From: a phage
Direction: 5' to 3' (one strand)
Sequence record: PZ386948.1
Length of the DNA stretch: 64,000 nt
Made by a program: the position numbers and the translations under genes. The notes under the pieces are model-generated. The model saw nothing but the letters and a program-made list of their open reading frames with translations. It did not search any database and was not told where the DNA came from. How positions within the stretch are numbered: the stretch's first letter is position 1; every line of letters begins with the position of its first letter. Below, piece after piece: positions 17,966 to 40,008 of this stretch.

Positions 17966-17989
17966 TTTGTGTTCCTCCGTAGTTGATAG

Positions 17990-18025
17990 TTGTATAGTAC
18001 CACAGAGGAACGGTCTTGTAAACAA
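17990..18025 (-). promoter_or_regulatory. Early-promoter repeat
   Basis: GTTTAC (18018-18023) plus the conserved TGTATAGTACCA block seen in several intergenic copies. Confidence 0.5.
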
Positions 18026-19877: not shown

Positions 19878-19911
19878 TTTGTTTTTCCGTTTAAGTGTTT
19901 GTTTTGATAGT

Positions 19912-19946
19912 TGTATAGTACCATAAAGCTTTATGCTTGTAAACAA
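19912..19946 (-). promoter_or_regulatory. Early-promoter repeat
   Basis: GTTTAC (19939-19944) plus the TGTATAGTACC block. Confidence 0.5.
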
Positions 19947-29710: not shown

Positions 29711-30127
29711 TTAAATGTAAATATTTTTGCCGTAATACTTATACCAGTGTGGCTTCATTAAAATTTTTTCATCGAGTCGTTGTTGACTCAACTTAATAGC
29801 TGATTTGCATGGATTATAATCATTTTTCCATTCTACTGGAATATCGCTGATGTCAGGAACTTCAGTATCTTTTATACTGAACCCGCGTTTTAAGCATTCC
29901 GTTATAATGTCCGATTGACGCTTTCGCAAAAATTCTAACTTATCGTAAAAGAAAGTAACATGACCAGAACCTAAAATAAATTTAGAAGATATTTTAAAAT
30001 CTTTAACGCGCTTACCGTTTGCCACATGCTTACGAACTATACCAAAAACACGCGGCAATTCACGGTATTCTGCGATTAAATGTTGATCAGCAAGTTCAGA
30101 TACTAAAGTCAAATTAATACGAGTCAT
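29711..30127 (-). CDS. denV: Endonuclease V (pyrimidine-dimer DNA glycosylase)
   Basis: 138 aa; [39 protein letters not shown]..., roughly 75% identical to my recollection of T4 DenV. Confidence 0.9.
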
Positions 30128-30186: not shown

Positions 30187-30717
<531 letters not shown>

Positions 30718-32996: not shown

Positions 32997-33001
32997 TATC
33001 A

Positions 33002-33595
33002 TTATTTCAGAGAATTAATGTATTCCTGAACATCGGCAGAGGTAGTTTCAACCCCAGAAATATTACCGTTAAAGGTTTCAACTCGAGCAAGGGTATCTTC
33101 AATATCAACCTTAGTCAGTGCTGCAATTTCAACTACATCATCAGCAGTACTAATTCCAAGGGCATTTGCTGCACGAGTTTCACGGATATATTCCAATTTA
33201 ACTGCAAGTTCTTGGCGAGCATCATCCAATTCAACTACTTTCTTGGCGATTTCAATTCGCATTTCAGCATAACCATCAGCTTTAGTAGTCAACTGTTCAG
33301 CTGTTCGACGATATAGCAAGCCGAGTTTAGCATGCATTGTTACATCTTGACTTTCAGAAAGAAGCTTGCGAATTTCACGCTCTTTTGATTCGGCCTGTCG
33401 ATTCTTTTCGACAATAAGTTCACGAATACGTTTTTCTTCATTAATAGATTTAACAGAAGCAGTTTTTAGATCTTTAATTTTATCAAGTAGTTTTGCTGCT
33501 GCAGCAGTATACTGTTCTTCGACAGATAGATTTTTAGCCATAGCAGAACCAAGTTTAGTGCGAATAAACTCAACAATTTTCTTCAGTGTGTTCAT
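33002..33595 (-). CDS. Coiled-coil protein of unknown function
   Basis: 197 aa, highly charged with heptad-like periodicity; AAGGAAA RBS. Confidence 0.55.
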
Positions 33596-33638
33596 AGTAT
33601 TTCCTTAGGTTGATTAAGATTTAAAATCCGTGAGAGTA

Positions 33639-33815
33639 TTATACTCCGGATAGTTTGTAAACTATTTCAACATCGCCTTTTGCTGCTTTATAACCTTCAG
33701 CCCAAGATATAACCGAGTTTTTATCTGAAGATTCAAATTCTGGCATTGGGCTTTCGCCAATGTTCACGCAGTATGTTTCTTCATTTTCGTCGAACCAAAT
33801 AATTAAAGTAGTCAT
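33639..33815 (-). CDS. Hypothetical small protein (58 aa), below the ORF-track cutoff
   Basis: ATG at 33815 with GGAG RBS: MTTLIIWFDENEETYCVNIG... Confidence 0.35.
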   Translation of the reverse strand: MTTLIIWFDENEETYCVNIGESPMPEFESSDKNSVISWAEGYKAAKGDVEIVYKLSGV

Positions 33816-33883
33816 TTATTTCTCCGTTTCTGTATTTGTTTTGATAAGTCTATAATAACACCGTCCTTGGTGTTTGTACACAA

Positions 33884-34147
33884 TTATTTCATATTATTGA
33901 AATATTCTTCTGCGATTTCGTCGTTATCATGGTAAACTTTAGAAGACAGTTTAACATAACCTTCAGCAGTGAACATGTTAATCACAACCTTTACAGTATA
34001 CCACTGACCATCTTCATTACCCATTACTGCGTAAGTTTCAAACATCGGATGGTCAGGACCGATAACTTTAATATCATTCACTGTACGACCGAAATCTTCT
34101 GAAACACATTTCATAAAGAAGTTGAACAGCTCACCGTAATTATCCAT
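33884..34147 (-). CDS. Hypothetical protein
   Basis: ATG at 34147 (MDNYGELF...); track extension is promoter sequence. Confidence 0.5.
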   Translation of the reverse strand: MDNYGELFNFFMKCVSEDFGRTVNDIKVIGPDHPMFETYAVMGNEDGQWYTVKVVINMFTAEGYVKLSSKVYHDNDEIAEEYFNNMK

Positions 34148-34187
34148 TTCATTCTCCAAGTTGTTTTCTGTATCAGTAGTTGATAGT

Positions 34188-34221
34188 TGTATAGTACCAT
34201 GGAAGGACAAGGATGTAAACC
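34188..34221 (-). promoter_or_regulatory. Early-promoter repeat
   Basis: GTTTAC (34215-34220) plus the TGTATAGTACC block. Confidence 0.5.
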
Positions 34222-34352
34222 GTTTTGTGAAAAAATTTTTAAAAAGTTTTGGGGAATTCTAGGGCAGGAAGGGGAAATCAAAGGATAGGATAATATATTA
34301 TAAAGGGTAGAAACTAAATGATGTCTAGAGAGGCCTGGAAAGGCCTAGATAC

Positions 34353-34380
34353 CAAAAAGCCCCAACCTTTCGGTCGGGGC
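34353..34380 (-). terminator. Rho-independent terminator, copy 1 of an identical 31-bp element
   Basis: gccccgacc-gaaa-gguuggggc hairpin followed by UUUUU; identical to 34909-34939. Confidence 0.7.
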
Positions 34381-34388
34381 TAAGAATG

Positions 34389-34862
34389 TTATTTGATTTG
34401 TTTAGCAGACCAAATGCGATCTTTAATAATTTTTTGGATGTCTTCAACATACACAAGAGAGTGAGCATGTGGATTATCTTTGAAACTATAAGCACGAGCT
34501 AGTTTTTGGCCTTCAGTTTTGATTACTAAAAGCTCTTTAAGGATAGCTTCATATTTGGAGATAATTCCTTTAACAATATTTTTTTCTTGTGCAGCTTTAG
34601 GATCTGCTTTAGGAGCAGGTTTACCCGAAGCCTTTGCAAAAGCAGCGCCAGTAGCAACTAAACTTTTCCAGGCCATACTAACTGCATTTCCCGTAAATCC
34701 TTCCGCTTTCATGTCGCGTGCGAACTGGAATCGCGATTCATCAGAAGCATCTTTATAAGAATATTTACCCGCTGCAATGGCTGCTTTTGCGACAGCTTGA
34801 ATTTCGGTGCTAGATGCTTCATTTAACACCGCTTCATTTAAAAATTGAGTATATGATTTCAT
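34389..34862 (-). CDS. Internal-protein-like protein with capsid-targeting sequence
   Basis: 157 aa; N-terminus MKSYTQFLNE|A resembles the T4 IP targeting sequence MKTYQEF... with an LxE cleavage motif. Confidence 0.6.
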   Translation of the reverse strand: MKSYTQFLNEAVLNEASSTEIQAVAKAAIAAGKYSYKDASDESRFQFARDMKAEGFTGNAVSMAWKSLVATGAAFAKASGKPAPKADPKAAQEKNIVKGIISKYEAILKELLVIKTEGQKLARAYSFKDNPHAHSLVYVEDIQKIIKDRIWSAKQIK

Positions 34863-34898
34863 CTTATTTCCTGTTTTAATTCGTGGTTTTAATATACT

Positions 34899-34906
34899 TA
34901 TTTATA
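34899..34906 (-). promoter_or_regulatory. Late promoter (TATAAATA) for the IP-like gene
   Basis: Exact TATAAATA on the minus strand about 37 bp upstream of the ATG. Confidence 0.55.
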
Positions 34907-34907
34907 C

Positions 34908-34935
34908 TAAAAAGCCCCAACCTTTCGGTCGGGGC
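34908..34935 (-). terminator. Rho-independent terminator, copy 2 of the identical 31-bp element
   Basis: Same hairpin as 34353-34380 with U-run. Confidence 0.7.
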
Positions 34936-34941
34936 TAAGCC

Positions 34942-35235
34942 TTGCGGCAACCTTGTCGGGGTTCCACCTGCTAAGGCAAGTGTTTGTACGAAACGCCGGG
35001 ATTCGAACCCGGTTATTAAGCAGTTGACGCTACTCAATATTTTTAAAAGGCCATATCTCGACCATATCCGAACGTTCCGTCAAAAACGCTACTCGGCTTA
35101 CGGCAAAGATATTTCCTCGAATCGATAATTCGGTGCGCCGTTTCTGCTGTGATGTAAGAGGGCATCAATAAACGCAAAGATTATTAACGCAATTCCTTAC
35201 TCAGGGAACATCAGTCCGACGACTTACCGGTAGCG
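34942..35235 (-). ncRNA. Structured GC-rich non-coding region, candidate stable small RNAs (T4 rnaC/rnaD-like position)
   Basis: No ORF; tRNA-like T-arm CCGGGTTCGAATCCCGG on the minus strand; sits between tRNA-Arg and the terminator as species 1/2 RNAs do in T4; boundaries approximate. Confidence 0.35.
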
Positions 35236-35245
35236 ACCCGGTTTC

Positions 35246-35596
35246 TTAATATTCTTTTAAAGCATCAATCTGTTTACGGCGTTCACGCCATAAATCAATT
35301 GCTTCATACGCGGATTCAACATTTCGAATTGGACGGCATTTATATAAAGATTTGTGATTTTGATATTGCGTAGATAACGGAATTTTATCTAAAAGGTCTT
35401 TACGTTCAAAGTATTCGTAACCATCTAAGCCAAATGAACGATTTTTGAGAAATTGCCAATGACCAAATTCGTTTTGAATATAAATATAATCCGCATGTTG
35501 ATAAAGTAAATTAATTTCACGAAATGAGATATGTTTTTCATATTCATTGAAGTAAAATGTTAAATCATGAACTACTAAATAAACATTACCTTTCAT
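35246..35596 (-). CDS. Hypothetical protein
   Basis: 116 aa with GAGG RBS, immediately downstream of tRNA-Arg. Confidence 0.5.
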   Translation of the reverse strand: MKGNVYLVVHDLTFYFNEYEKHISFREINLLYQHADYIYIQNEFGHWQFLKNRSFGLDGYEYFERKDLLDKIPLSTQYQNHKSLYKCRPIRNVESAYEAIDLWRERRKQIDALKEY

Positions 35597-35614
35597 ATTT
35601 TCCTCACTTATAAT

Positions 35615-35690
35615 TGGTCGAGGCAGTAGGGATCGAACCTACGACCTAGGACTTAGAAGGTCCTTGCTCTTCCTTCTGAGCTATGCCCCG
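35615..35690 (-). tRNA. tRNA-Arg (anticodon UCU)
   Basis: Manual cloverleaf: acceptor CGGGGCA/TGCCTCG, anticodon loop CTTCTAA, T-arm GTAGG-TTCGATC-CCTAC, 3' ACCA. Confidence 0.8.
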
Positions 35691-35694
35691 TAAT

Positions 35695-35781
35695 TGGGGT
35701 GACCGATGGGAGTCGAACCACCCGAGTCGCAATGACAATGGATTTACAGTCCACACCGCTACCTCTACGGGATAACTCCCC
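35695..35781 (-). tRNA. tRNA-Tyr(GUA)-like class II element, probably degenerate
   Basis: Canonical anticodon arm GTGGA-CTGTAAA-TCCAT, long variable arm, TTCGACT T-loop and 3' CCA, but acceptor and T stems pair poorly. Confidence 0.4.
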
Positions 35782-35794
35782 TTAATTCTTAATT

Positions 35795-35869
35795 TGGTGG
35801 CCCTGGGTGGAATTGAACCACCATCTGGCGATTATGAGTCGCTTGCTTGAACCTTCCAGCTACAGGGCC
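35795..35869 (-). tRNA. tRNA-Ile/Met (anticodon CAU)
   Basis: Acceptor GGCCCTG/CAGGGCC, anticodon loop CTCATAA, T-arm GGTGG-TTCAATT-CCACC, 3' ACCA. Confidence 0.75.
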
Positions 35870-35870
35870 T

Positions 35871-35946
35871 TGGTGCTGATTGACGGAATCGAACCGCCGA
35901 CCTTCTCATTACAAGTGAGTTGCTCTACCTACTGAGCTAAATCAGC
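35871..35946 (-). tRNA. tRNA-Thr (anticodon UGU)
   Basis: Acceptor GCTGATT/AATCAGC, anticodon loop CTTGTAA, T-loop GGTTCGATTCC, 3' ACCA. Confidence 0.8.
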
Positions 35947-35951
35947 AAAAC

Positions 35952-36041
35952 TGGCGGAGGCGATAGGATTTGAACCTATGAGTCGCCGGAGCGACTGCCG
36001 GTTTTCAAGACCGGTGCATTAAACCACTCTGCCACGCCTCC
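35952..36041 (-). tRNA. tRNA-Ser (anticodon UGA), class II
   Basis: 90 nt; acceptor GGAGGCG/CGCCTCC, anticodon loop CTTGAAA, long variable arm, T-loop GGTTCAAATCC, 3' GCCA. Confidence 0.8.
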
Positions 36042-36047
36042 AAATAT

Positions 36048-36698
36048 TTATATATTGTTAATTTGATTTAGAATTCTTTTTGCTTGAGTATGACTTACGC
36101 CAATATGCTTAGCATATTTAGACAATTCGCCACGTTTAGAAAAATCATATAATTTAGAAATTTCTATTCTTCTTTTTCTTTCATCCGCAGAAACTTTTGC
36201 TTCGTTTGCTTTTGCTATTTTACGTTTAGCTTCTTGAGAATGAGTTTTACCAGCAAAGCCATTCTTCATTAATCCATTTGAAGACCATCCTTTTAATTTT
36301 CCGTTAGAATGTGCCTTTTTAACACCCAATGAAATTAATTCGCGTTGCTGATCTGTCATAGGATAATTATTTATATGATCCCATCCACCTTCACCTCCAA
36401 GTTTTAAATTATACACATCTGGTCTATTTAAAAACTCTTCTGTGACAATATTTTTCTCGGCTTCAAGCATAGATTCTTTATCGTCAAAATACTCTAATAT
36501 TTCTTTAGAAAAATTTTCTATACCATATTTATCTTGGGCTCTTTTTAATAATTTACCAGAACCCATATATCCATCATCTAAATTTTCGGTAGAATGCACA
36601 CCAATATAAATTTTATTATTAATTTTATTTGTTATTTTATAAAGATAAAAATGCATATCAGTCCCTAATAAAGAACTGAGCGTCTCACGACGAGTCAT
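36048..36698 (-). CDS. segB: GIY-YIG homing endonuclease (SegB-like, within the tRNA cluster)
   Basis: 216 aa; N-terminal GIY-YIG module (YLYKITNKINNKIYIGVHST...GYMGSGKLLKRA); lies between tRNA genes as segB does in T4. Confidence 0.75.
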   Translation of the reverse strand: MTRRETLSSLLGTDMHFYLYKITNKINNKIYIGVHSTENLDDGYMGSGKLLKRAQDKYGIENFSKEILEYFDDKESMLEAEKNIVTEEFLNRPDVYNLKLGGEGGWDHINNYPMTDQQRELISLGVKKAHSNGKLKGWSSNGLMKNGFAGKTHSQEAKRKIAKANEAKVSADERKRRIEISKLYDFSKRGELSKYAKHIGVSHTQAKRILNQINNI

Positions 36699-36702
36699 AA
36701 AT

Positions 36703-36776
<74 letters not shown>

Positions 36777-36781
36777 AAATT

Positions 36782-36868
36782 TGGTGCGAGAAGTGGGACT
36801 CGAACCCACAAGGAAATCATTCCGCAGCATTTTAAGTGCTGTGCCTTTACCAATTTGACCATTCTCGC
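36782..36868 (-). tRNA. tRNA-Leu (anticodon UAA), class II
   Basis: 87 nt; acceptor GCGAGAA/TTCTCGC, anticodon stem-loop CAGCA-CTTAAAA-TGCTG, long variable arm, T-loop GGGTTCGAGTCCC, 3' ACCA. Confidence 0.8.
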
Positions 36869-36874
36869 GCTATA

Positions 36875-37507
36875 TTATTTATTACGTGAAAAAGACTGTT
36901 CTATCAATTCTGGACACTTTCGTTCTATCCATTTTCTAGCTTTTTGTGGGCTTATACCTATTATTTTAGCAGCTTTACTAACCCATCCAAATTTAGAATA
37001 ATCGATTTTAACTAATTCTTCGTAAATTTCATCAGTTAAAATCTTTTCATTAATATTTACCAGTAAATGATATAATTTATTATCATTAGCAATTTTAATG
37101 AATCTTTTATAGTTTCCGCCTTTACTTAAACCTAATGAAGTAATTGCAGATGATATAGTAGCCGAATTTAATAGTGCGTTTAAAATTTCTTCATCACTAA
37201 CATTATAACGCTTTTTATTATTTTTAATATTTTTACCAGCAAAAGTATCAGTTTGCGAATGGCAGTTTGGACATAATAATCTTAAATTTGATTTAAGATG
37301 ATTTTTGTTATTTCCATCAATATGGTCTAATTGCAGAACAATATGCTTATTTTGCCATTTTGAAATTTTACAAATTGCACACTCATATGGAAAAATATTT
37401 TCTTTTATTATTTTGTCTTTCAGCTTTCCTGTACTAAAATTTGGATGTTTTCCTTCAAAAATTTCAGCTAATTTAGTATCCATAATATGATTCCCAATTA
37501 TTAACAA
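36875..37507 (-). CDS. HNH homing endonuclease
   Basis: 210 aa; LQLDHIDGNNKNH...LRLLCPNCHSQTD (HNH with Zn-binding Cys); stop abuts tRNA-Leu. Confidence 0.75.
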   Translation of the reverse strand: MLIIGNHIMDTKLAEIFEGKHPNFSTGKLKDKIIKENIFPYECAICKISKWQNKHIVLQLDHIDGNNKNHLKSNLRLLCPNCHSQTDTFAGKNIKNNKKRYNVSDEEILNALLNSATISSAITSLGLSKGGNYKRFIKIANDNKLYHLLVNINEKILTDEIYEELVKIDYSKFGWVSKAAKIIGISPQKARKWIERKCPELIEQSFSRNK

Positions 37508-37582
37508 AGGCTCTCTAACAAGAACCCTTGATGATAGAGGGTATTAATCAGTGCGGTATGAGTTAATAATAACAAATAATTC

Positions 37583-38098
37583 TTAAAGCAAATTAAACAT
37601 TTTAACGGTCGGCAAAACAATTTCTTTTTCTATATAAGAGTATTTAACACTCTCAACTACACGCAAAAAATCATAATCATAATACTCAGAAGCATTACCT
37701 AAAATATTAATAAGTCCTTCAAGCACTTTATTACCATTCACAAAGAATAAGTCAAATACGCGTTCTTCGTCTTCTTCGGATTTATTACCAAGGTCAACTT
37801 CTATATCAAAGACCTTTTTAATGAATTCTGGATAAAGTTGTTCTGAGAACAGTCCTTCAACCAAGTATTCATAAATAAAAAGCGATTGCTCGCTGAACAA
37901 GCCATTACCACAATAACGTTCAGCTTTAGTACTAGAATGTCTACTTTTAAACTTCTTTAAAAGATATTGAAATTGTAAGATTTCATGCTCTTCTACGCCA
38001 AACAGTGTTTTAGTTTTATAGTTGTCACCATCATTTTCCCAGGTAGTGACATCAATTACGTAACCCTGTGGAATTGTAGTACCTAAACAAATATTCAT
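37583..38098 (-). CDS. Hypothetical protein
   Basis: 171-aa ORF. Confidence 0.5.
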   Translation of the reverse strand: MNICLGTTIPQGYVIDVTTWENDGDNYKTKTLFGVEEHEILQFQYLLKKFKSRHSSTKAERYCGNGLFSEQSLFIYEYLVEGLFSEQLYPEFIKKVFDIEVDLGNKSEEDEERVFDLFFVNGNKVLEGLINILGNASEYYDYDFLRVVESVKYSYIEKEIVLPTVKMFNLL

Positions 38099-38984: not shown

Positions 38985-39018
38985 TAATAGTATCACTACT
39001 AAAACCCAATGTAAACAA
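38985..39018 (-). promoter_or_regulatory. Early-promoter repeat (IP-array type)
   Basis: GTTTAC (39011-39016), 18-bp spacer, TACTAT; shares about 50 bp with copies at 39279, 39645 and 39975. Confidence 0.55.
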
Positions 39019-39019
39019 T

Positions 39020-39244
39020 TTATTCAACGCCAGCGGCTTTCAAAAGTTTCTTAAGATTGGCAACACCTTGAGCAGAAAATGTGACCTTGCCACCTTTTTC
39101 ACTGATAGAACCAACCAATTTAGCAAGTTTATCATTAGGAATTTTTTTAAAATCAGCCAATGTTCCATCAAAGGTTTTTGAAACAAAAGGCAGTTCGTCT
39201 TCGCGTCTTTTAGCTTCTACAATAAATTCTTGATATGTTTTCAT
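39020..39244 (-). CDS. Internal-protein-like protein (capsid-targeting sequence MKTYQEF)
   Basis: ATG at 39244 with RBS; N-terminus MKTYQEFIVEAKR resembles the T4 IP targeting sequence. Confidence 0.6.
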   Translation of the reverse strand: MKTYQEFIVEAKRREDELPFVSKTFDGTLADFKKIPNDKLAKLVGSISEKGGKVTFSAQGVANLKKLLKAAGVE

Positions 39245-39278
39245 TTTAGTTTCCATTTGAGTGTTTGTTTTGATAGGG

Positions 39279-39312
39279 TAATAGTATCACTACTAAAACC
39301 CAATGTAAACAA
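39279..39312 (-). promoter_or_regulatory. Early-promoter repeat (IP-array type)
   Basis: GTTTAC (39305-39310), 18-bp spacer, TACTAT (39281-39286). Confidence 0.55.
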
Positions 39313-39328
39313 CTTTGTGAAAAATTTA

Positions 39329-39616
39329 TTACAAAAGATTTTTAGCAATAATCTTGAGATGTGCCGCAGAAATGTGTTTAGCTTTAAACAACGCAGTTTC
39401 TTCAGCAGGAGAGATAACGATTGTAGCACCATCCTTTTTAGCAGACCACCCATCGCCTAGGTAAACAGTACCTTTGATTTCTTCGCCATCAACCAGACTA
39501 ATCATTGGTTTACCTTCTCGTCCTTTATTTGCTTTAATAACTTCAGAAGTAAGAGTAGCTTCGGTAATAGTAGAAACCGGGGTAGTTGTAGAAGTAAATT
39601 CTTTGAAAGTTTTCAT
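39329..39616 (-). CDS. ipI: Internal protein I-like
   Basis: 95 aa; N-terminal MKTFKEF targeting sequence with a likely ITE|A cleavage site; position next to 57B as ipI in T4. Confidence 0.65.
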   Translation of the reverse strand: MKTFKEFTSTTTPVSTITEATLTSEVIKANKGREGKPMISLVDGEEIKGTVYLGDGWSAKKDGATIVISPAEETALFKAKHISAAHLKIIAKNLL

Positions 39617-39644
39617 TTTATTTTCCTAATTAATTTTGATAGGG

Positions 39645-39678
39645 TAATAGTATCACAACTAAAACCCTATGTAAACAA
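39645..39678 (-). promoter_or_regulatory. Early-promoter repeat (IP-array type)
   Basis: GTTTAC (39671-39676), TACTAT (39647-39652), flanked by inverted repeat ataggg/ccctat. Confidence 0.55.
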
Positions 39679-39688
39679 CTTTGTGAAA

Positions 39689-39946
39689 TTATTTTAAATC
39701 TTCTAATCGTTTCTTCATCTTAGAACCGTTCTTAGCGATTTCGCCTGCATCAGAGCATAATGCTAAAAGCGCTTTAACTTTAGTTTGGTCTCCTTTAAAA
39801 GATGAAGGATCAACAGCAGCAGCAAGTTCTTTAATACGAGAGAAAAGACGCTCAGCTTCAGCTAAAGCCATTCCAAGCTTTACTTCCATACCGCGGGAAG
39901 ATTCAGTAATAGTAGTTTTTGTAGCAAACTCTTTGAAAGTTTTCAT
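39689..39946 (-). CDS. Internal-protein-like protein (MKTFKEF)
   Basis: 85 aa; first ~7 codons and upstream leader near-identical to the ipI-like gene. Confidence 0.6.
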   Translation of the reverse strand: MKTFKEFATKTTITESSRGMEVKLGMALAEAERLFSRIKELAAAVDPSSFKGDQTKVKALLALCSDAGEIAKNGSKMKKRLEDLK

Positions 39947-39974
39947 TTTATTTTCCTAATTAATTTTGATGAGG

Positions 39975-40008
39975 TAATAGTATCACTACCTCATCAGTAT
40001 GTAAACAA
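39975..40008 (-). promoter_or_regulatory. Early-promoter repeat (IP-array type)
   Basis: GTTTAC (40001-40006), TACTAT (39977-39982), flanked by perfect 9-bp inverted repeat gatgaggta/tacctcatc. Confidence 0.55.

Follow-up and report, generated by a model that had tools for sequence, protein, structure and literature searches.

The internal proteins (Ips) of T-even phages, their capsid targeting sequence, and the shuffling of their genes have been known since the 1990s, and two loci are regarded as the classical Ip loci, the denV-e interval and the trna.4-57B interval. Ip variants of T-even phages were reportedly described by Repoila et al. in 1994 and the capsid targeting sequence by Mullaney and Black in 1996, and Comeau et al. 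are said to have reported more than 30 IP variants in 2007. Here we describe a gene, called gene A below, that encodes a predicted internal protein of 157 amino acids (aa) and lies between e.8 and rnaC in a 64,000-nucleotide (nt) stretch of phage DNA (sequence record PZ386948.1; "the window" always means this whole stretch). An earlier note, made from the letters of the window alone, had proposed that an internal-protein-like gene is packaged here as a cassette between two identical terminators. Our analysis makes it likely that gene A is a T4-type Ip gene in a late transcription unit of its own, and that its product would be packaged, processed by the prohead protease gp21, injected, and, by analogy with the T4 Ips, most likely active against a host defense.

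Each of the T4 proteins Ip1, Ip2, and Ip3 blocks a different GmrSD-family type IV restriction enzyme, without cross-protection, and for five further GmrSD systems that are active no inhibitor is known (PMC12373910). Ip-type GmrSD inhibitors are recognized by homology to IPI*, IPII, or IPIII, and the gene A protein (A) shows no such homology. Like IPI, IPII, and IPIII, however, A begins with a leader of the form MK(T/S)(Y/F)x(E/Q)F(I/L)xE↓A (the arrow marks the cleavage position) with the same critical residues; it is also small, basic, and nonessential, its body is unrelated to those of other Ips, its presence varies among close relatives, and it is carried as a single-gene unit. Unlike the T4 Ip genes, gene A sits at a third locus, behind a late promoter only and downstream of a strong GC-rich terminator, whereas the ipI-locus genes of the same window each follow an early-type TTTACA-17-TACTAT promoter.

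Two other kinds of single-gene unit offer comparisons. The morons of lambdoid phages, reportedly described by Juhala, Hendrix, and colleagues in 2000, resemble the A cassette in being autonomous promoter-gene-terminator units that stand between two conserved genes and are present in some relatives; morons are as a rule expressed from the prophage, to the advantage of the lysogen, whereas the A cassette belongs to a virulent phage and is predicted to be expressed late to load the virion. The use of terminator and promoter elements as recombination linkers has been formalized (PMC2839356) in the PeSLs, mobile regulatory cassettes of RB49/phi1-type phages (Arbiol et al. 2010, PMC2839356; Comeau et al. 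2014, PMC4122927). As at the gene A locus, repeated short regulatory elements with a GGGG...CCCC-type stem-loop flank single accessory open reading frames (ORFs), and recombination between elements removes or adds the ORF precisely, leaving the regulation of its neighbors undisturbed; the 555-bp difference between T4 and the window likewise ends exactly in the repeated element, which here is 31 bp long. A PeSL, however, combines an early sigma70-like promoter with the stem-loop, occurs in many dispersed copies in hyperplastic regions, and is further marked by mini-circles excised in infected cells, whereas at the gene A locus the terminator alone is duplicated, the late promoter TATAAATA is present once, and the 64-kb window holds just two copies of the element even by relaxed patterns.

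Gene A forms a single-gene unit between two identical terminators

The 1.2 kb around gene A is 99.9% identical to Shigella phage CM8, a Tequatrovirus, and 93 to 99% identical to several hundred T4-like phages; the window phage is a Tequatrovirus. Read along the minus strand, the order is the tRNA cluster, a 116-aa ORF, the rnaD and rnaC homologues, terminator T1, TATAAATA, gene A, terminator T2, a spacer, an early promoter, e.8, and then e.7 onward. Gene A (34389 to 34862, minus strand; stop codon at 34389 to 34391) is therefore found between e.8 and rnaC and not at either of the classical Ip loci, a location that is customary for Ip genes and not strictly defining.

The anatomy that had been proposed for the cassette held up in each of its parts. 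The ORF begins with the T4-Ip-like leader MKSYTQFLNE↓A, and an exact late promoter, TATAAATA, lies at 34899 to 34906 (minus strand), 3 nt past the T-run of T1 and 36 nt upstream of the ATG. A Shine-Dalgarno sequence, AGGAAA (34867 to 34872, minus strand), is located between the promoter and the ATG and ends 4 nt before the latter. On the upstream side, T1 (34909 to 34939, minus strand) ends the tRNA/rnaD/rnaC unit with a hairpin at 34913 to 34936 that reads AGCCCCGACC-GAAA-GGTTGGGGCT and is followed by TTTTT; on the downstream side, the identical T2 (34354 to 34384, minus strand; hairpin at 34358 to 34381) ends the gene A transcript. The shared 31-mer, AAAAAGCCCCAACCTTTCGGTCGGGGCTAAG, occurs exactly twice, as direct repeats. 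No further copy with up to 3 mismatches was found, none appeared in 100 shuffles, and the similarity between T1 and T2 reaches 36 bp with one mismatch. On the minus strand both form a 10-pair hairpin with 7 GC pairs and a T-run, and they are the best two terminator-like sites in 19 kb. A relaxed hairpin pattern recovered just T1 and T2 from the window, and we accordingly rejected the idea of a dispersed terminator family.

The TATAAATA octamer is not rare in so AT-rich a sequence (16 copies in the window versus 10.8 expected) and is not significant alone, so that the weight of the late promoter comes from its position and its conservation in relatives. RB27, ime09, KP1, and JS98 have it at the equivalent position, Mosigvirus copies read AATAAATA there, and the combination of a late promoter and a terminator at this position is conserved across genera.

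The leader matches the capsid targeting sequence of the T4 internal proteins

The protein starts with MKSYTQFLNEAVLNEASS, and its leader (codons 1 to 15; 34818 to 34862, minus strand) reads MKSYTQFLNE↓AVLNE↓A, with two LNE motifs that fit the gp21 cleavage rule. T4 IPII and IPIII start with MKTYQEFIAE↓A and IPI starts with MKTFKEFTSTTTPVSTITE↓A. Residues Y4, F7, L8, and E10 of A correspond to Y4, F7, I8, and E10 of IPIII, and Y4 and F7 are shared with both IPII and IPIII; in mutagenesis experiments, residues 4 and 7 mainly governed targeting and residues 8 and 10 governed processing (summarized in PMC9026906). Across the divergent family of A homologues, position 7 is always F and position 4 is either Y or F, and the leader is retained in homologues from JS98 and from Klebsiella, Yersinia, and Serratia phages whose bodies are only 26 to 29% identical. 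The strict leader pattern fits just 2 ORFs in the 64 kb, the other one being in the classical ipI locus. The match at the critical residues and the conservation in divergent members strengthen a reading of the leader as a capsid targeting sequence. Beyond the leader, the body of A showed no sequence or profile similarity to IPI (PF11634), IPII, or IPIII (the BLASTP comparison with IPIII gave E = 1.1, with nothing significant outside the leader), and the PHROG families differ; a body unrelated to those of other Ips is typical of Ips.

The (L/I)xE processing motif occurs in A at residues 8 to 10 and again at residues 13 to 15, in both cases as LNE, and cleavage is predicted at these sites. The two sites result from a 5-residue duplication, FLNEA VLNEA (34818 to 34847), which the window allele shares with the distant JS98 homologue (L020:1758-1805) but which the RB27 and Mosigvirus alleles lack. 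Alleles without it have one site only, which lines up with E15, the second site here; this site is kept in all close homologues, so the mature N terminus is more likely A16 than A11. The LNE motif that had been proposed as the cleavage site is thus present, but the position originally assigned, after E10 (mature start AVLNEASSTEIQAVAK), is less well placed than E15, and from the alignment cleavage more probably follows E15, giving a protein that starts with ASSTEIQ (ASSTEIQAVAK). The predicted mature protein has 142 to 147 aa, a mass of ~15.4 kDa, and an isoelectric point (pI) of ~9.6.

The locus exists in four states

T4 has the same flanks as the window around a single terminator and lacks exactly the 555 bp between the equivalent repeat positions. 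Comparison with other relatives revealed four states of the locus: an empty state with a single terminator (T4, T6, PST, and BP32), a state with A only (this window, AR1, RB27, and JK1), a state with A plus a second cassette, B (ime09 and Mosigvirus ChristianSchoenbein), and a state with B only (Shfl2 and RB14). The earlier note had named invariance of the gene and both repeats among T4-like phages as an outcome that would speak against its proposal; the locus proved to be polymorphic, as is usual for nonessential Ip genes with unrelated mature parts. We classified by eye 60 evenly spaced records out of 773 that matched, and among the ~39 rows that were Tequatrovirus-like we counted ~22 with A only, 9 with A plus B, 1 with B only, and 7 that were empty, figures that give rough proportions and are no census. 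IMG/VR held only 10 loci for e.8, too few for counting these states. Truncated or frameshifted copies of gene A, of 93 to 111 aa or split into two BLAST pieces, were present in several phages (P0006, P0008, P0017, P0032, P0034, H72, and H74), which fits a gene that is dispensable and decaying in some lineages.

Cassette B, which is absent from the window, comprises a 187-aa ORF with the leader MKTYAEFLTE↓A (RB14ORF136c, ime09 gp250, and Shfl2p135; L006:581-1144 in ime09, L007:588-1154 in Shfl2, and L011:2088-2651 in ChristianSchoenbein). Like A, it comes with a late-promoter-like box (AATAAATA) and a terminator of its own and belongs to phrog_2280; unlike A, it has a different terminator stem, an unrelated N-terminal domain, and a nearly invariant sequence, with 95 to 100% identity in 164 of the 165 phage records that contain it, even across the genus boundary. 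A BLASTP comparison of A with B matched the leader alone. When the profile of the A family was compared with the C-terminal half of B using hhalign, the match had an E value of 1.9e-5 and a probability of 78%; a comparison of B with the Klebsiella homologue was not significant. From these similarities, A and B are probably distant paralogues that share the leader and a C-terminal helical domain.

The junctions between states point to the terminators as sites of exchange. In the B-only genome, T1 is joined straight to the upstream region of B, exactly what a crossover between T1 and T2 in an A-plus-B genome would yield, and the junctions in B-only and A-plus-B genomes coincide with terminator T-runs. 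Empty sites carry two different terminator alleles, a GACC stem in T4 and an AGCC stem in BP32, the latter being the stem of both terminators of the RB27-type A allele, which suggests that A has been lost independently more than once.

Gene A is older than its repeat pair

Homologues of A occupy the same site, past the tRNA/rnaC unit and ahead of the e.x genes, in Tequatrovirus, Mosigvirus (APCEc01), Jiaodavirus (Klebsiella phage KP1), and JS98, each after a terminator and a late-promoter box; the homologue of Yersinia phage fHe-Yen9-01 is known here as a protein only. Gene A is older than the repeat pair, since the terminator downstream of it bears no relation to T1 in JS98 and KP1 and the two Mosigvirus copies have diverged. 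The identical pair is a Tequatrovirus feature. Gene A is ancestral at the locus in at least 4 genera examined, or 5 with the unplaced JS98 locus included, and the empty state of T4 is best taken to be derived, by deletion between the repeats.

Within Tequatrovirus there are two deep alleles of A. We compared the nucleotide identity of the window with that of RB27, JK1, and L015 region by region. The flanks (e.8, spacer, T2, T1, and rnaC) are 90 to 100% identical and the 3' half of A is 87 to 89% identical, whereas identity falls to 70% in the 5' half of A and to 61 to 63% in the 5' untranslated region that includes the promoter (34863 to 34908). Synonymous difference amounts to 0.41 to 0.58 in A versus 0.06 to 0.29 in the adjoining e.8, so the cassette has a history different from and older than that of its flanks, and alleles have been swapped. 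This is the pattern left when alleles are replaced by homologous exchange through conserved flanks. In one Mosigvirus, B is 97% identical while A is only ~72 to 75% identical to the A of the window. The proposal that the cassette is a module exchanged by recombination consequently survives in part: the alleles and the four states bear out the exchange, but the unit is not a recent foreign module.

The product is uncharacterized and confined to T4-like phages

All sampled public records label gene A "hypothetical" (AR1_137, RB32ORF132c, CM8_00127, and fD1 g140 among them). The same label was given to A and B in 100 of 100 records sampled, A being present in 512 phage genomes and B in 165. PHROGs places A in phrog_2280, function unknown, and does not annotate it as an Ip, and a Pfam search of the protein found no match. 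The family comprises 13 representatives among 1.84 billion proteins, all from T4-like phages, and 13 clusters in a set of 5.8 billion proteins.

In an AlphaFold2 model of A, the leader is poorly defined; it is followed by three helices in the N-terminal region (to about residue 71), a disordered linker rich in Lys, Pro, and Ala (about residues 72 to 87; KPAPKADPKAAQEK), and a long C-terminal helical hairpin (residues 88 to 154).

A near-identical orthologue has been found in a virion preparation. Protein g140 of Yersinia phage fD1 has 157 aa, is 98.7% identical to A, and is marked PPAP, that is, particle-associated under a strict threshold, in Table S3 of PMC8309999. Absence of the protein from virions, which would have spoken against an internal protein, is therefore not what these data indicate, and the detection agrees, weakly, with packaging.

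The spacer downstream of the cassette is ordinary T-even intergenic DNA

Between T2 and the early promoter of e.8 lies a spacer (34225 to 34353), a piece of conserved T-even intergenic DNA whose plus strand is purine rich. It had been described as a purine-rich stretch downstream of the gene that carries GAATTC, TCTAGA, and two AGGCCT sites, and this description is accurate, "downstream" being right in the direction of transcription. At 34230 to 34350 purines make up a fraction of 0.686, which places the stretch in the top 0.05% of 121-nt windows, and 8 six-bp palindromes, those named included, occur in 125 bp versus a mean of 1.96, a number reached in none of ~2,500 sampled windows. The claim that the spacer is unlike neighboring phage DNA is right as to strand asymmetry and palindromes, which are extreme, but not as to base composition or origin: its G+C content of 0.347 equals the window mean, so that the spacer is unusual in its strand asymmetry and not in its base composition. 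It is 92 to 93% identical to natural T4, T2, and T6 DNA and occurs in 515 phage records, although its middle part is missing from one Mosigvirus and the whole of it from another. The GC-containing palindromes are not conserved, T4 retaining GAATTC only. The spacer can be aligned whichever of the four states the locus is in; it belongs with the e.8 flank and not with the cassette. Its strand asymmetry is real.

Two other identities for the spacer were tried and rejected. As a structured RNA it folded no better than shuffled sequence did (z-scores for the two strands, 0.14 and 0.07). A vector match, which the earlier note had raised as a sign of an engineered construct, was not found: beside the 515 natural phage records, the sole plasmid match was a 30-nt promoter fragment. 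This fragment (34215 to 34244, the e.8 promoter and upstream) has a 100% match at two places each in AJ297913.2, NC_007635.1, and NZ_CP017779.1, which are conjugative plasmids.

Neighboring genes and other features of the window

Gene e.8 (33884 to 34144, minus strand) is kept in all four occupancy states. Its early-type promoter (34191 to 34219, minus strand) consists of GTTTACA, 17 nt, and TACTAT, with an A/T-rich tract upstream. A 21- to 24-nt core of the early promoter and transcription-start region recurs exactly (34176 to 34199, 17979 to 18002, and 19904 to 19924), the other exact copies sitting at early promoters within the window.

On the other side, the rnaC and rnaD homologues (34985 to 35245, minus strand; coordinates carried over from the T4 annotation and approximate) are 97 to 100% identical to those of T4 and RB27 and have no Rfam match. 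An Rfam E-value scan of 33000 to 38000 found tRNAs only, with nothing at the spacer or at rnaC/rnaD, and Rfam apparently lacks a family for either of these T4 stable RNAs. The 116-aa ORF (35246 to 35596, minus strand; phrog_3355, function unknown) separates the rnaD-like RNA from tRNA-Arg, whereas in T4 these two adjoin with nothing intervening. A weak tRNA-like match at 35708 to 35779 (minus strand; 22.7 bits versus a gathering score of 29) stands where AR1 has tRNA-His, and the tRNA-Asn, -Tyr, and -Gln genes of AR1 have no counterpart in the window, so the tRNA set varies between near-identical phages. Two homing-endonuclease-type genes lie within the tRNA cluster (36048 to 36698 and 36875 to 37507, minus strand); in the CM8 annotation one is SegB-like and the other an HNH endonuclease.

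At the ipI locus of the window (39020 to 40005) there are three leader-bearing ORFs, of 74 aa (phrog_8765), 95 aa (the IPI orthologue, PF11634), and 85 aa (phrog_3499). The early-type promoter TTTACA-17-TACTAT occurs four times across this locus (38987 to 40005), once ahead of each ORF and once just past the 74-aa ORF, and none of the three has TATAAATA directly upstream. At the other classical locus, denV (29711 to 30127) directly adjoins the lysozyme gene e (30187 to 30681), whereas T4 has ipII and ipIII between them; the window phage thus has neither ipII nor ipIII.

Discussion

The features described above suggest the following course of events. T1 would halt transcription arriving from the tRNA/rnaC operon, TATAAATA would be active late, during prohead building, and T2 would shield the early promoter of e.8 from the late A transcript. 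The leader of 10 to 15 residues would direct A into the prohead core, where gp21 would cut it at LNE↓A, most probably leaving ASSTEIQ... at the N terminus. The basic, all-helical product of ~15.4 kDa would be kept in the head with the DNA and injected alongside it, and the mature protein would, by analogy with the T4 Ips, most likely neutralize a host defense upon DNA entry. The fast-evolving N-terminal domain (residues 16 to 75) would then be the specificity part. The identical terminators would double as recombination substrates, a T1 x T2 crossover removing exactly 555 bp and giving the T4 state, and homologous exchange via the conserved flanks would swap alleles and lead to gain or loss of the paralogous cassette B. 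By the same analogy, the target of A is probably a GmrSD-type restriction enzyme.

Several points weigh against assigning A to the injected anti-defense proteins. We infer its late timing of expression, its cleavage by gp21, its injection, its anti-defense activity, and its target only from sequence and from analogy. When the ten Ip genes of Silas et al. were set against the five further active GmrSD systems, no new inhibitory pair emerged (PMC12373910), so that GmrSD is not guaranteed as the target. The structural model was built from 9 sequences (mean predicted local distance difference test score of 75), a Foldseek search with it against the PDB gave a best E value of 1.3 and no fold-based function, and a search against the viral models of BFVD returned family members only, with no functional hint. 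The known Ip genes of the window's ipI locus follow early-type promoters, whereas A follows a late one only, and RB27-type alleles have MTE, rather than the canonical (L/I)xE, at the predicted cleavage site. Gross ratios of nonsynonymous to synonymous change (dN/dS) are below 1 everywhere (~0.2 in the N domain and 0.04 to 0.08 in the C domain), so positive selection is not demonstrated; the N domain is the faster-evolving part. Finally, the fD1 virion proteome lists 113 to 137 of 277 gene products, including Tk, DenV, and NudE (PMC8309999); because it also contains enzymes, the detection of g140 is unspecific and its support for packaging is weak.

A bolder version of the same idea, which we put forward tentatively and think rather doubtful, is that A and B are modular injected effectors in which a shared leader and C-terminal hairpin form a chassis and the N-terminal "warhead" domains are swapped, that they are aimed at defenses other than those met by Ip1 to Ip3, and that e.8-rnaC is an overlooked third, late-promoter-driven counter-defense hotspot. 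The chassis could serve packaging, DNA association, or oligomerization, with swaps arising by recombination within the gene and at the terminators, and the targets could be, for example, GmrSD groups without a known inhibitor or a non-GmrSD system.

The main rival to the anti-defense reading accepts that A is packaged but makes it a basic, DNA-associated protein that condenses, neutralizes, or ejects the genome or protects DNA ends. The pI of the mature protein would suit such a role, as would the linker KPAPKADPKAAQEK, which the JS98 homologue expands to ~45 residues of histone-H1-like PAK repeats, and the C-terminal helical hairpin, which is under strong purifying selection (dN/dS of 0.04 to 0.08) and is probably shared with B. 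The gene is dispensable, however: the site is empty in many Tequatroviruses, T4 and T6 among them, and frameshifted copies exist elsewhere. The basic T4 proteins IPII and IPIII proved to be specific GmrSD inhibitors, and a fast N domain with swapped alleles fits an arms race better than a housekeeping structure. We therefore judge a purely DNA-associated role to be unlikely.

It is very unlikely that the cassette is a recently acquired foreign module, inserted in the manner of a moron into a T4-like empty site, and not an ancestral gene that T4 has lost. That view draws on the self-contained promoter-gene-terminator unit between identical repeats and on the clean junction in the reference genome, T4, which has no cassette, but homologues stand at the same position in Tequatrovirus, Mosigvirus, Jiaodavirus, and JS98, the downstream terminators of JS98 and KP1 are unrelated to T1, so that the gene predates the repeat pair, and the family, with its 13 representatives, is limited to T4-like phages. 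Reinsertion of A into empty sites by homologous recombination during coinfection may nevertheless occur and is part of the model that we prefer, in which A is an ancestral Ip gene. Barely credible, finally, is the idea that the likeness of the leader is a coincidence or relic in an unpackaged late cytoplasmic protein, or that the region is an engineered construct or cloning scar: it can appeal to four GC-containing restriction-type palindromes within ~100 bp of spacer and to A itself being known here from sequence, but no part of this highly divergent family is better conserved than the leader, the only other ORF in 64 kb with the strict pattern lies in the known ipI locus, an orthologue was detected in virions, and the spacer, whose GC palindromes are unconserved and whose plasmid match spans 30 nt, occurs in 515 natural phage genomes including T2, T4, and T6, which already refutes the construct or scar.

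The e.8-rnaC interval is, we conclude, a third internal-protein site of T-even phages, one that is absent as an Ip locus from the accessible literature and annotation; papers of 2010 and 2025 name only two Ip loci. The leader strings of A had no match in the supplements of Silas et al. or in the literature searched, although A may be among their ten ip genes, and its family was not annotated as an Ip in any sampled record, although it may have been named as one in older literature. Relative to what is accessible, three further things look new: e.8-rnaC as an Ip site, a late-only promoter behind a GC-rich terminator, and A and B as paralogues with a shared C-terminal domain.

Because A and B lie outside the two loci that are usually inspected for Ip genes, they are ready candidates for new injected anti-defense proteins, and they are of interest since several active GmrSD groups have no known phage inhibitor (PMC12373910). 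T4 offers a natural empty site for the cassette, and the locus is a clean natural example of terminator-bounded gene gain, loss, and allele replacement in a virulent phage.

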